Assembly (NCBI GenBank): GCA_034670305.1
Contig: JAXMNT010000041.1
Coordinates: 9,862 to 73,861 of the forward strand
Length of the DNA: 64,000 bases
From: Deltaproteobacteria bacterium
GTDB taxonomy: Bacteria > Myxococcota_A > Polyangia > Polyangiales > Houyiibacteriaceae
Direction: 5' to 3'
Shown here: positions 6,618-53,540 of the stretch, one piece after another
Layout: each line of letters opens with the position of its first letter
Position numbering within the stretch: the first letter of the stretch is position 1
Position numbers and translations under genes: made by a program
The notes under the pieces: model-generated
The model's database searches: none
What the model was told of the DNA's origin: nothing
Seen by the model: the letters and a program-made list of their open reading frames with translations, nothing else

Positions 6618-6787
6618 GGCGTCGGCTTCGGCGTCGGCGTCGGCTTCGCCTTCGGTTTCGGCTTCGGTTTCGGCTTCGGCTTCGGCTTCGGCTTCGGCTT
6701 CGGCTTCGGCTTCGGCTTCGGCTTCGGCTTCGGCTTCGGCTTCGGCTTCGGCTTCGGCTTCGGCTTCGGCTTCGGCTTCGGCTTCGG
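6618..6787. repeat. (GGCTTC)n hexamer tandem repeat, about 28 units with a degenerate 5' part
   Basis: Directly visible, starting just after the stop at 6605. Confidence 0.97.
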
Positions 6788-8596: not shown

Positions 8597-8892
8597 GCCC
8601 CTTGCCCTTGCCCTTGCCCCTGCCCGTGCCCGTTGCGTTCGCGGAAGCGGAAGCGGAAGCGGTAGCGGTAGCGGTAGCGGAAGCGGACGCGGAAGCGGAC
8701 GCGGAAGCGGAAGCGGAAGCGGAAGCGGAAGCGGACGCGGTAGGGGTAGCGCGGAAGCCGACGCCGAATCCGAAGCCGACGCCGAACCCGAAGCCGAAGC
8801 CGAATCCGAAACCGAATCCGACGCCGAAGCCGTCGCCGAATCCGAATCCGAATCCGACCCCGACCCCAACCCCGACGCCGCTCCCGATCCCG
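8597..8892. repeat. Composite hexamer microsatellite cassette (GCCCTT/GCCCGT)n-(GCGGAA)n-(GCCGAA)n-(CCCGAC/T)n
   Basis: Directly visible; abuts the stop of the 8894 gene. Confidence 0.95.
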
Positions 8893-19735: not shown

Positions 19736-19857
19736 GGCTCGGCATCGGGATCGGTTTCGGCTTCGGTTCGGTTTCGGCATCGGGGTCGGCTTCGGAGCCA
19801 CAGGAACCGCGGGCACGGGCACGGGCACGGGCACGGGCACGGGCACGGGCGAACCGC
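19736..19857. repeat. Composite cassette: degenerate (GGCTTC)n followed by about six GGGCAC units
   Basis: Directly visible after the recF stop; reverse complement parallels 31161-31295. Confidence 0.92.
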
Positions 19858-20032
19858 ATGCTCGGCTTCGCCATCCTCGACCGAGTCGCGGTGTTGCTGA
19901 AGCGCTGGCGGCTGAGCGTCCGCAGTTCGAACGCGGCGGCGTACAAACAAACGGGAGATCATTCGAGATTTCCAACCATCCAATCGATGTGCAGCGGTGC
20001 GACTTCTGCACAACCCAGCTAGGCTGCGAGCG

Positions 20033-20038
20033 AGGAGG
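20033..20038 (+). promoter_or_regulatory. Shine-Dalgarno AGGAGG for ATG at 20045
   Basis: Perfect AGGAGG 6 nt upstream of ATG 20045. Confidence 0.75.
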
Positions 20039-20052
20039 GGCCCGATGACAAC

Positions 20053-20092
20053 CTCACTCACTCACTCACTCACTCACTCACTCACTCACTCA
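20053..20092 (+). repeat. Perfect (CTCA)10 tetranucleotide microsatellite
   Basis: Ten exact units counted between ATG 20045 and the downstream ORF. Confidence 0.98.
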
Positions 20093-20103
20093 TTCTTCTG
20101 AGC

Positions 20104-21252
20104 ATGCTCGCGGCGCTTGGATGTGACCCTCCCACCGGTTTCTTCATCGAGCCGACCGCCTCGGACGGGGAGCTCCAGACCTACCCACTCTTCGAAGGGC
20201 TCACGTTCGACGCGACCTCGGCGGCCATGCCAAGCGTGGCCGCCGAGGTGACCTCCGTCCGGTATCTGAACTCCAGCCGGCAAGTCCCCTTTCTGCTGCA
20301 AGGCGACACCAACTTGGGGAGCCCGTTGCTCGGGCTCCGCTTGCCCGCGTCCGGGGAAGCTGCTCGGACGGAGTCTGTGGGTCCAGCCGGGGCCTGGAAC
20401 AGTGTACGGGTATACGACCGAGGGGAGTGTTCGACCATTGAGGACTGGTACGCGACCGATGAGGATGGTGCGTCCGGCATCACGGTCGATCTCGCGGCTG
20501 GGCTCTTGGAGACCCTCTCATCGAGCAGCGACATCAGCGGTGCGGAGCTGCGGTTCGCAGAGTTCGACGTGGAACTCAACAGCCGGGGTCGCCTGGGCTA
20601 CGACATCACGGAAGACGTCGTGTCGCTCACCTTCCGCTTCTTCGCGGAGAACGTAGGCCCCAGCAATGTTCTCGGCTGCAAACGTGTGGAGTACACGATT
20701 GCCATGGAGTTGCAGCTCGTTCAGACCGACGCGGCGGTGGAGTCCATGGACGCCGTAGACTTCATGGAGCGCTGCCATCCCGACGCGTCGGGGTTCGGAC
20801 TCTTCCTCCTCGCGAACCGTGCCATCGAGGACCTTCGCGCCAGGACCCGCCCCACCTGTCCAGACGAGACATTGCTCCCTACGGAACGGCTCGGACTCGT
20901 TCGCTACGACGACGTCGACTCCATCGTACTGCGCGAGGACTACTCTGGATCCGAGGGCAGTCCTCGAGCCCACATCCTCTTCTTGTTCTCTGACCTCTCG
21001 GGCCGGCCGCTTGGCGCCCACGACGTACTCGTGCGCACCCTCCGTCCGGACGGGTTTGAAATCGTTCTGGCCGACTTCGTCGACGAGGATGTGCAAGCGG
21101 ACTTCTTCGGGGCAACCTCCTTCGTCACCCCCACGCTCTGCGGCCTGGAGCGCGACGAGTATGGCGACCCCGACACCAGTAGCGAGGAGTTCCCCAGGGT
21201 GGCCCCTCCCTTCCGGGTACTTCCCGAGGACATTGCTGGGGGCTCGCTGTGA
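20104..21252 (+). CDS. Hypothetical lipoprotein; probable true start 20045 is out of frame because of the (CTCA)10 tract
   Basis: 382-aa ORF beginning MLAALGC, preceded in frame by ILLS; less GC3-biased codons than neighbours; stop overlaps the next start (GTGA). Confidence 0.75.
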   Translation: MLAALGCDPPTGFFIEPTASDGELQTYPLFEGLTFDATSAAMPSVAAEVTSVRYLNSSRQVPFLLQGDTNLGSPLLGLRLPASGEAARTESVGPAGAWNSVRVYDRGECSTIEDWYATDEDGASGITVDLAAGLLETLSSSSDISGAELRFAEFDVELNSRGRLGYDITEDVVSLTFRFFAENVGPSNVLGCKRVEYTIAMELQLVQTDAAVESMDAVDFMERCHPDASGFGLFLLANRAIEDLRARTRPTCPDETLLPTERLGLVRYDDVDSIVLREDYSGSEGSPRAHILFLFSDLSGRPLGAHDVLVRTLRPDGFEIVLADFVDEDVQADFFGATSFVTPTLCGLERDEYGDPDTSSEEFPRVAPPFRVLPEDIAGGSL

Positions 21253-22091
21253 CTCGACTACTCGTGGGTGTGTTGCTCGTTGGGCTCGCGTGCGGAGGCC
21301 CGAGCGTCCCAAGTGACGGGAGTGTCGACGCCGGTGGGTTGGATGCCGGTCCAACAGACGCTTACCTACCGGGCGCATGCGGTTCTGACGGCACCGAAGC
21401 GTGCGGCTGTGTAGGACCCGTTCGAAGGTGCGACATGTGCCTGGACCGCTGCGAACGAGGATCCGTTTGCGGACGGGGCGCGTGCCAGTTGAGTGATCTC
21501 AGTACCTGCGCCTACCGCGCGGGCGACGGCGCCTACCAGTTTTGCAGTCGAGGTGTGTGCGCGGGATGGGAGGGGCCGCAGTACCCCGGCGGTGACGACT
21601 CGTTTGGAGGGATCTGCGTGAGGCCCGAGTACTGTATCGCGCGCGGAGACGCTGACCCGCCGCTCAGCCCAGATCTCGCCGAAGGAGCCTGCAGGTACAG
21701 CGACGGAACGGAAGTCGTGACCGGCCCGCCCCCACTCGACGCGTGCCCACCTTCCGATCCACGTGCTCGGTACTGCGGGGGGCCGTGTAGTATTTCCTGC
21801 CCCGAAGATGAGTTCGACTTCTTCGAGCACCGCCGGTTCCCCTGCGCCGGTCTCAGCGACAACCGTGGCTTCGGCGTCTGCGCGGTGAGCTTGCAGGTCT
21901 GTGTGGAGGGGCAACCGCGGCCGCTCAGCACGATCGACGGAGAGCAGGTCGTGTGCATGGTCCCGATGCCGCAGCCTGCCGAGCACCCGGCCCACGGCTA
22001 CGAGGTCCCGCTCTCGGTCTGCCGGGACTATGTGCGGCATCACCCCGACCACGCGACCTGCGTCGATGGCAACTTCGATCCGATCCTCTGA
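21249..22091 (+). CDS. Cys-rich lipoprotein, paralog A
   Basis: MTRLLVGVLLVGLAC lipobox; many Cys; collinear motifs shared with the next gene. Confidence 0.85.
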   Translation: MTRLLVGVLLVGLACGGPSVPSDGSVDAGGLDAGPTDAYLPGACGSDGTEACGCVGPVRRCDMCLDRCERGSVCGRGACQLSDLSTCAYRAGDGAYQFCSRGVCAGWEGPQYPGGDDSFGGICVRPEYCIARGDADPPLSPDLAEGACRYSDGTEVVTGPPPLDACPPSDPRARYCGGPCSISCPEDEFDFFEHRRFPCAGLSDNRGFGVCAVSLQVCVEGQPRPLSTIDGEQVVCMVPMPQPAEHPAHGYEVPLSVCRDYVRHHPDHATCVDGNFDPIL

Positions 22092-22974
22092 CCACATCGC
22101 TTGGCTCGGCCTGGTCCTCGTCGCTGGCTGTTACCTGAGCCACGGCGAGGTGCCGGGGTCGGACGGCGGAGTGGCGTCCGATGCTCGGGAGGACGGCGAA
22201 GTCGGATCCGAGTGCGGGTTCCTCGGGCCGTACCGTAGGTGCGACGTGTGCGACGTGCCGTGTCCCGCGCCGACCGAGTGTTACCCGCGAACCGGGGTCT
22301 GCCGGCCGCCGGACCGTGCCAGCCCGGGCGGGTTTCCGATCCACGACACGTGCGTGCTCCGCTTCGAGCCCGTGCCGTACGGCGACCGGCTCGACATCGT
22401 GGACTACTACCGGGCGTTCGGCTCGGTCGATGGGTGCGAGGACGCGGCGCTCTGTGCCGTCGGTCGGGAGGATGGTCCCACCCTCGAACAGCCGTTCACC
22501 GGCGTCTGCATGGATCCGGATTACTGCGAGGCGCTCGCGACCGTGCCCGAGACGGAGCTCGTATGCCGCGGCACCGACGGACGGGTGGTGGCACGGGCAC
22601 CCGCACCCGAAGCCTGTCCTCCAGGTTTGGGGTTCTGCGGTGAGGGTTGCGACCCGTGCCCCGACCACATGGTCTGCGCGGGGGTGTCCGAGACCCGCGC
22701 GGTCGGCGTGTGCGCTTCGGCGATTCCGTGCTTTCACCCGGACCAGACGCCGGTCGACGAAACCCGCATTCACCGCGACTACTTGGTGCTCAACGGCGCG
22801 CTCCGTGAATGCCGGGAGTACGCGATGACGGAGACCTGCCTGTGTCTGACCTTCGAGCCGTGGGCGTGGCCGGAGTATCCGGAGCAAGGCGTCGGGGTAC
22901 CGCTCGACGCGTGCCACGCGTACGCAGCGAGGTACCCCGGGGAGACGGTGTGTCATGAGGAGTGGGAACACTGA
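22066..22974 (+). CDS. Cys-rich lipoprotein, paralog B
   Basis: Likely ATG 22066 (MATSIRSSDHIAWLGLVLVAGC, lipobox); GPYRRCDVC, GVCMDPDYC, CAGVSETRAVGVCA align with paralog A. Confidence 0.82.
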   Translation: MATSIRSSDHIAWLGLVLVAGCYLSHGEVPGSDGGVASDAREDGEVGSECGFLGPYRRCDVCDVPCPAPTECYPRTGVCRPPDRASPGGFPIHDTCVLRFEPVPYGDRLDIVDYYRAFGSVDGCEDAALCAVGREDGPTLEQPFTGVCMDPDYCEALATVPETELVCRGTDGRVVARAPAPEACPPGLGFCGEGCDPCPDHMVCAGVSETRAVGVCASAIPCFHPDQTPVDETRIHRDYLVLNGALRECREYAMTETCLCLTFEPWAWPEYPEQGVGVPLDACHAYAARYPGETVCHEEWEH

Positions 22975-31127: not shown

Positions 31128-31341
31128 ACCGAAGCCGACGCCGAAGCCGATGCCGAATCCGATGCCGACCCTGAAGGAGTGCGGTTCCCGTGCCCGTGCC
31201 CGTGCCCGTGCCCGATCACTCCGAAGCCGAAGCCGAAGCCGAAATCCGACCCCGAAACCGAAGCCGAATCCGACGCCGAAGCCGAAGCCGATGCCGCGTC
31301 GAGCAACGGGCAAGGGCAGGGGCAAGGGCAAGGGCAAGGGG
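31126..31341. repeat. Composite cassette (GAAGCC)n-(CCCGTG)n-(GAAGCC)n-(GGGCAA)n
   Basis: Directly visible, starting at the stop of the ferritin-like gene. Confidence 0.93.
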
Positions 31342-53235: not shown

Positions 53236-53540
53236 CGCCCGCGCCCGTGCCCTTGCTGCCCTTGCTGCCCGTGCTGCCCGCGCTGCCCTTGGAGATCGAT
53301 CCCGAAGCCGAACCCGAAGCCGATCCCCAAGCCGACGCCGATCCCGAAGCCGAAAGCCGAACGCCGATCGCGATCCCGAAGCCGATCCCGATCCCGAAGC
53401 CGACGCCGATCCCGATCCCGAAGCCGAAGCCGAAGCCGAAGCCGATTCCCGAAGCCGAAGCCGATTCCCGAAGCCGAAGCCGATTCCCGATTCCCGATTC
53501 CCGATCCCGATCCCGATTCCCGATTCCCCGATCCCGGCCC
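53236..53540. repeat. Composite cassette (GCCCKT-like)n-(CCGAAG)n-(CCCGAT/CCCGATT)n
   Basis: Directly visible; lies just downstream of the aldo/keto reductase stop. Confidence 0.93.

Follow-up and report, generated by a model that had tools for sequence, protein, structure and literature searches.

In the stretch of DNA analysed here, called the window (64,000 nucleotides, positions C41:9862-73861 of genome G000, a metagenome-assembled draft of 7,933,502 bases in 105 contigs with 68% G+C), a perfect tetranucleotide tract, (CTCA)10, lies at the 5' end of a gene for a member of a lipoprotein family. Comparison of this gene with its homologues makes it probable that the tract is, or very recently was, a slipped-strand ON/OFF contingency switch. 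The proposed switch would sit in the part coding for the signal peptide, in the first gene of a three-gene lipoprotein operon of a Polyangiales myxobacterium. Repeats occur at the same place in homologous genes across the order, and switching thus appears to be a property of the whole family. The layout of the locus, its frame arithmetic, the uniqueness of the tract, the recurrence of repeats in the family and a deletion in the body are read directly from sequence, whereas frequent change in tract length, selection for such change and the role of the protein are inferred.

In the proposed mechanism, ribosomes would start at an ATG at position 20045, which is led by a Shine-Dalgarno sequence. 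With 10 repeat units, translation would end at 20099-20101, and no exportable protein would be made because the leader frame stops there (the OFF state). If the tract grew by one unit or shrank by two, the leader would become continuous with a hydrophobic core, a lipobox cysteine and the body of the protein (the ON state).

Organization of the tract and leader

All features of this locus lie on the forward strand. The Shine-Dalgarno sequence, AGGAGG (20033-20038), is placed 6 nt 5' of ATG 20045, and this start codon (20045-20047) sits 8 nt before the tract (20053-20092), for which Tandem Repeats Finder (TRF) reports a period of 4, 10.0 copies, 100% matches and a score of 80. As assembled, the leader frame (20045-20101) consists of the ATG and 18 codons in all, encoding MTTS, repeats of LTHS and then FF, and is closed by a TGA at 20099-20101. 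The body is an open reading frame (ORF) of 382 codons (20104-21252) in a different frame; upstream of 20104 this frame is open as far as a TAG at 20020-20022, and neither ATG, GTG nor TTG is found in between. There is also no Shine-Dalgarno motif in the 20 nt preceding ATG 20104. The segment encoding LILLSMLAALGC (20089-20124), which is the hydrophobic core followed by the lipobox, is read in the body frame and is joined to ATG 20045 only if the number of units, n, equals 2 modulo 3. When unit counts from 6 to 14 were simulated, the two frames fused at n = 8, 11 and 14 and not at 6, 7, 9, 10, 12 or 13; fusion at n = 2 and 5 follows from the same frame arithmetic. A first-pass annotation, made from the sequence alone, had described this layout, and the sequence, TRF and the ORF list bear out its Shine-Dalgarno sequence, start codon, tract, stop codon and body ORF, as well as its calculation that 2, 5, 8 or 11 units would fuse the frames (of these counts, 8 and 11 were simulated, together with 14).

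The body frame carries the features of a lipoprotein, in that LILLSMLAALGC places a cysteine directly after a hydrophobic core, in a pattern that we take to be a lipobox, and this cysteine aligns with the lipobox cysteine column of the homologues. At n = 10, though, the sole start led by a Shine-Dalgarno sequence is out of frame with it. Translation from ATG 20104 would leave only 6 residues ahead of the lipobox cysteine, and because of this short extension the product is not expected to be exportable, as the annotation had also argued. Nor do the homologues begin at the equivalent of Met 20104, as they would have to for the annotation's reading to be refuted on this count; where its refuting conditions could be put to the test, none came true.

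The tract itself is beyond chance. Among the 102 TRF rows for the window no other has a period of 4, in agreement with the earlier remark that no other perfect tetranucleotide tract occurs in the 64 kb, and the tract is unique in the genome: G000 as a whole contains three tetranucleotide tracts of at least 4 units, of which only the CTCA tract has at least 5, and CTCA or TGAG at 3 or more units is found nowhere else in it. An order-0 model of the genome predicts 5.0 tetranucleotide tracts of at least 4 units, 0.06 of at least 5 and 2e-11 of at least 10. Ten perfect units also exceed the cut-off of 5 units that is given for tetra- and pentanucleotide phase variation in PMC6321876.

Repeats in the leaders of homologous genes

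Homologous loci were gathered purely by protein homology, and their 5' ends were inspected only afterwards; 33 loci were obtained in this way, which with the window makes 34. The 5' ends of 12 of the 34 are unreadable, either because they lie off the locus or contig (L002, L016, L017, L018, L020, L022, L023, L029 and L030) or because they are unclear (L015, L026 and L037). Among the 22 readable ends, 14 (in 11 of 19 genomes) have a leader repeat with a unit length that is not divisible by three (1, 2, 4, 5 or 7 nt), and all 14 repeats are placed between a Shine-Dalgarno-led start codon and the lipobox. In the homologues, too, a GGAGG-type motif precedes the start codon upstream of the repeat. 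Tetranucleotides are found in G000 (CTCA x10), G176 (TCTG x7) and G146 (TCGT x11), and pentanucleotides in G025 (three loci, GCAGA x9, GCAGA x8 and CAGGA x6), G028 (two loci, GCAGA x7 and GAGAA x7) and G189 (AGAGC x4, which is under the usual 5-unit cut-off of PMC6321876). The remaining repeats are a heptanucleotide in G072 (CGTTTCT x7), a dinucleotide in G263 (GA x17) and homopolymers in G095 (G9), G197 (G9) and G118 (C12). Two of the G025 genes are near-identical paralogues that differ in unit number, with 9 in one and 8 in the other.

Tracts were counted from thresholds of at least 9 for homopolymers, 6 units for dinucleotides, 4 for tetra- and pentanucleotides and 3 for hepta- and octanucleotides. 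As a control, the same thresholds were applied to about 115 kb of homology-fetched DNA, in which 15 tracts were found; 13 of them lie in leaders of the family. One of the other two is a G9 within a partner gene, and the second, an A9, precedes the gene of G193. A search of five genomes for the pentamer pattern returned the family loci and, beyond these, only one small lipoprotein gene of G028. In this non-family gene (L063, G028:C184:2238-2277, minus strand) a 40-nt pentanucleotide run of the TCTGC type encodes the hydrophobic core of the signal peptide; the run is in frame as assembled, and another gene for a cysteine-rich lipoprotein follows.

The frame could be judged at nine of the repeat-bearing loci. 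Seven are OFF (G000, both loci of G028, G176, G146, G118 and G095) and two are ON (G189 and G072, the latter from a three-frame reading). At each OFF locus, adding or removing one unit opens a reading frame that runs without interruption for more than 300 codons and includes signal peptide and lipobox, and internal stops are absent from the bodies of the homologues. Left out of this judgement were G263 (where the start is unclear, at a contig edge), G197 (which has a second shift in the body) and all three copies of G025, the last because each needs an extra 1-nt change. Frame-shifting repeats at one position, with both ON and OFF states represented, are the signature of a contingency locus, and their presence in 14 of the 22 homologous 5' ends supports the annotation's interpretation of the tract as such a locus.

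Of the family representatives, 58 match as far as the N-terminus, and in about 14 of these the called start lies 4-11 residues before the lipobox cysteine, as it does in the window. Gene callers thus start inside the signal peptide, and exported proteins are therefore mis-annotated as cytoplasmic. In-frame repeat peptides are seen in three other representatives of the family. Two loci of one genus, L028 (G095) and L033 (G172), look like orthologues; in the former the charged and the hydrophobic parts of the signal peptide are separated by a G9 run and the gene is out of frame, and the latter, which has no such run, is in frame.

Evidence against a switch and alternative explanations

Several observations weigh against reading the tract as a working switch. 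The body in the window lacks 128 codons (384 nt, in-frame deletion junction at 21039-21046) that are kept in the close relatives P0003 and P0002 (137 codons in the latter) and in all distant homologues; the lost segment includes 5 cysteines and a stretch that models as a long central helix in the G035 homologue. The region is contained in 11 public sequencing runs as contigs assembled at k=31, and those of runs X1, X3, X5 and X6 were compared with the window. In each of the two source runs, X1 and X3, an 8,310-nt contig shows zero differences to the window across the deletion, which is therefore real in that population, and the X5 and X6 contigs carry the extra 384-nt segment. An independent marine contig (X5, 2,207 nt, encoding P0003) is 95-99% identical to the window and keeps the 128 codons, but it joins position 20037 to 20595, so that 20038-20594 (557 nt) is deleted; this removes about 165 codons together with the tract, the signal peptide and the start codon. 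Different lesions in the lipoprotein gene are thus found in two strains of this species. The ON leader, MTTS(LTHS)n, is without lysine or arginine, residues that are present in the n-regions of the homologues. The annotation had expected a complete lipoprotein signal peptide upon fusion; the core and the lipobox are indeed restored, and the n-region lacks its positive charges. It had also expected that a single slip would switch the gene ON, which is right as regards translation only: the ON product of the window is probably defective, as its body has lost 128 conserved codons with 5 cysteines. To these points are added the 8 of 22 readable ends that have no repeat (L006, L010, L011, L014, L021, L027, L031 and L033), the OFF state of 7 of the 9 judged loci, which is also what pseudogenes would show, and the three G025 copies (L005, L007 and L036), in which no unit count restores the frame and each would also have to gain a base at a homopolymer of 2 or 4 bases close to the lipobox. 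These extra shifts are either long-read assembly errors or shared decay; to judge from how its contigs are named and how long they are, G025 may be a long-read assembly. The genome is also rich in repeats, with 925 hexanucleotide tracts of at least 4 units against 3 tetranucleotide and 4 pentanucleotide tracts. Finally, the X1 and X3 contigs break at 20046-20101, inside the tract, and n = 10 is the count as assembled.

Much of this would be accounted for by plain gene decay, that is, by chance expansion of a repeat in a repeat-prone genome, an inactivating frameshift and a pseudogene without reversible switching. The 128-codon loss from the conserved core, the 557-nt 5' deletion in the related strain, the unrestorable G025 copies, the preponderance of OFF loci and the repeat content of G000 all favour such a history, and a G+C content of 68% by itself yields many long open frames. 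Decay nevertheless fits poorly with the distribution of the repeats, as repeats of five unit lengths, none of them a multiple of three, recur among the homologues, in 14 of the 22 and within the same 100 nt of leader, which is not chance, and such tracts are nearly absent elsewhere (13 of the 15 control tracts are in leaders, and a single tetranucleotide tract of at least 5 units exists in G000). The tracts are perfect, whereas decaying repeats gather interruptions; the OFF bodies run uninterrupted in one frame for 300-500 codons, and the partner gene is well conserved. We consider decay unlikely as the whole explanation of the tract. Contingency switching in the family and damage to this one copy may both apply: given the loss of 128 conserved codons here and of the tract and 5' part in the marine strain, the copy in the window probably belongs to a phase-variable family and is itself in decay, having been caught OFF.

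An assembly miscount, with a true or dominant tract of 11 or 8 units and a gene that is simply in frame, would remove the OFF state altogether. Such an error could be imagined in a metagenome-assembled draft of 105 contigs, the more so as the k=31 contigs from the two source samples fail to cross the tract. A tract of 40 nt, however, fits well within a short read, the contigs that flank it have depths of 24-36 and 12-14, and the same state of being one unit OFF occurs in six other independent assemblies; the tract would moreover stay a potential switch even if its count were wrong. A miscount is thus quite improbable. Still less credit is given to fixed regulation or recoding, whether by an 18-codon upstream ORF with re-initiation at 20104 or by slippage of ribosome or RNA polymerase on the repeat at a set rate. 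The stop codon at 20099-20101 is only 2 nt from ATG 20104, a spacing suited to re-initiation, but the product from 20104, having 6 residues before the lipobox cysteine, would not be exportable. Recoding would call for a conserved site, and the opposite is seen, with units and counts that vary among homologues and with either frame represented; the repeat-free homologues (G035, G114, G194, G287 and G017) read through a full lipoprotein signal peptide in a single frame. Compared with these alternatives, a slipped-strand switch remains the explanation that we favour.

Relation to known switches and significance

The closest parallel is found in the Opa proteins of Neisseria, in which, as in the family described here, the start codon is separated from the mature protein by a repeat with a unit length not divisible by three, copy number sets the frame, and multi-copy surface proteins exist as ON and OFF copies. 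The homologue at G028:C62 even has the Opa unit on the opposite strand (GAGAA, equivalent to CTCTT). There are, though, clear differences, since Opa proteins belong to the outer membrane of a host-restricted pathogen and have a single unit in common, and the present family consists of lipoproteins of free-living Polyangiales with at least 11 units of 1, 2, 4, 5 and 7 nt, for which switching is deduced from sequence. No sequence relation to Opa was found for the window protein and four homologues, which lack a Pfam match to it. Mycoplasma species also have families of variable surface lipoproteins that are switched by homopolymers or short repeats; these bacteria are wall-less and host-associated, and many of their lipoprotein switches act in promoters.

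In Haemophilus influenzae, contingency loci have tetranucleotide tracts in the 5' part of ORFs, as in the window, and they are reported to gain or lose units at about 1e-4 per generation against a basal rate of 1e-9 (PMC2651432). H. influenzae has many such loci in a small, AT-rich, host-adapted genome, in contrast to the single tetranucleotide tract in the 7.9 Mb and 68% G+C of the present one. Repeat-driven contingency loci are described mainly in host-adapted bacteria (PMC2651432). The position within the signal-peptide coding region is shared with Neisseria pilC, which has a poly-G tract there (PMC13190605); distant members of the present family use G9 or C12 in a like manner, but pilC encodes a pilus-tip adhesin and its switch is a homopolymer, and that of the window is a tetranucleotide. 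In its mode of action the proposed switch thus resembles those of Opa, pilC and H. influenzae, and its protein falls in none of their families.

A full-text search of open-access papers and preprints returned no report of repeat-driven phase variation in Myxococcota. The yellow/tan variation of Myxococcus xanthus is, to our knowledge, not repeat-driven. In a review of myxobacterial genomics, the references name no other phase variation than this one (PMC8538405). The mechanism is classical; the novelty lies in the lineage and in the range of repeat types across one family.

If the interpretation holds, free-living myxobacteria with large and GC-rich genomes would use the same bet-hedging device on a lineage-specific lipoprotein family, and so many kinds of repeat unit at a single site would clearly exemplify selection for mutability. 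They would also point to a surface protein on which phages, prey or kin exert fluctuating selection. A more specific scenario can be offered tentatively, and we regard it as rather doubtful in its full form: a cysteine-rich surface lipoprotein family of Polyangiales, built from a betagamma-crystallin-like domain and a BPI/TULIP-like lipid-binding core and accompanied by its cysteine-rich partner, may have gained hypermutable leaders repeatedly and independently (at least 11 repeat units), so that free-living social predators could hedge their bets on a lipid- or lipopolysaccharide-binding surface protein that serves as phage receptor or as prey- or kin-recognition factor, the selective agent being something other than host immunity.

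Protein family, structure and operon

The family is small. As a query, the window protein matched only itself, P0002 (96% identity) and P0003 (97%) among 5.8 billion proteins, and a profile of 11 full-length homologues retrieved 232 representatives at E <= 0.001, 67 of them at E <= 1e-30, from 1.84 billion proteins. Its neighbours in a protein atlas are Myxococcota clusters with scores of 0.80-0.83. Family matches are present in 30 of 401 genomes of a sample at the level of the order, and a class-level sample gave matches in 2 of 401 genomes, none of them outside the order with 4 candidates scored per genome. The genus contains this genome alone, and the window protein matched 4 of 41 relatives' genomes; a search within the family of G176 spanned the same 32 genomes. 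An alignment-based search yielded 7 genome-contig loci, none of them new, and one short fragment among metagenome contigs. Relatives in the same family and order that carry homologues are recorded as Polyangiaceae, Polyangiales or Sandaracinaceae bacterium, which supports the earlier assignment of the host to the myxobacteria.

Members of the family have nearly invariant cysteines and an N-terminal lipobox cysteine. Pfam holds no family for the window protein (E <= 0.1), the partner proteins or the intact homologues, and four homologues compared with it at E <= 1 gave nothing except a sub-threshold match to PAN_4. An AlphaFold model of the G035 homologue, based on 54 sequences, has a predicted local distance difference test score (pLDDT) of 92.9 and a predicted template modelling score (pTM) of 0.89, and Foldseek found no match to it in the PDB at E <= 0.001. 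In a wide structural search, residues of about 120-394 of the model matched BPI (Z 7.8, root-mean-square deviation (rmsd) 5.0 over 182 residues), CETP (Z 6.1) and further tubular lipid-binding proteins, such as the Escherichia coli lipoprotein YceB (Z 5.7), SPLUNC1 (Z 5.0) and others. Residues 22-123 matched the betagamma-crystallins 3hzb and Protein S (1nps) with Z 3.6-3.8 and rmsd 2.7-2.9 over 81-83 residues, and the Foldseek match to a betagamma-crystallin domain had a probability of 0.93 and E 0.02. The homologues thus model as a betagamma-crystallin-like domain joined to a TULIP/BPI-like domain, an assignment to be taken as a lead only because every Z is below 8.

Two further lipoprotein genes follow on the forward strand. 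Gene 2 (21249-22091) encodes a cysteine-rich lipoprotein, the conserved partner of the family, and its start codon, a GTG, shares bases with the stop codon of gene 1 (GTGA). Gene 2 is 39% identical (E 3e-41) to the gene that follows the G035 homologue, and the same neighbour is present in G025. Because of the overlap with gene 1, the partner genes may likewise be influenced by the state of the tract. Gene 3 (22066-22974, with Met 22066 as presumed start) is a paralogue of gene 2 (26% identity, E 4e-11) with the lipobox LVAGC. Upstream of the lipoprotein genes lies recF.

Other repeats in the genome

Dense hexanucleotide arrays occupy intergenic positions in the window at 6618-6787, 8641-8857, 19739-19850, 31129-31340 and 53297-53536, and elsewhere too. 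Other repeats of G000 with a unit that is not a multiple of three, among them GCGAACA x9 and CCTTCGGG x5, are likewise intergenic. The GCGAACA x9 run (contig C14:36768-36830) ends about 15 nt before the GTG of a 395-codon ORF, and an effect on the promoter of that gene or on its 5' untranslated region is conceivable. A second candidate switch lies outside the window on contig C9 (101054-101067, minus strand, locus L066), where a run of 14 G stands directly 3' of a lipoprotein signal peptide with its lipobox cysteine and is followed by a 190-residue body containing a Trypsin domain (PF00089, E 6e-11); the gene is OFF at G14, and a run of 13 or 16 would bring it into frame.

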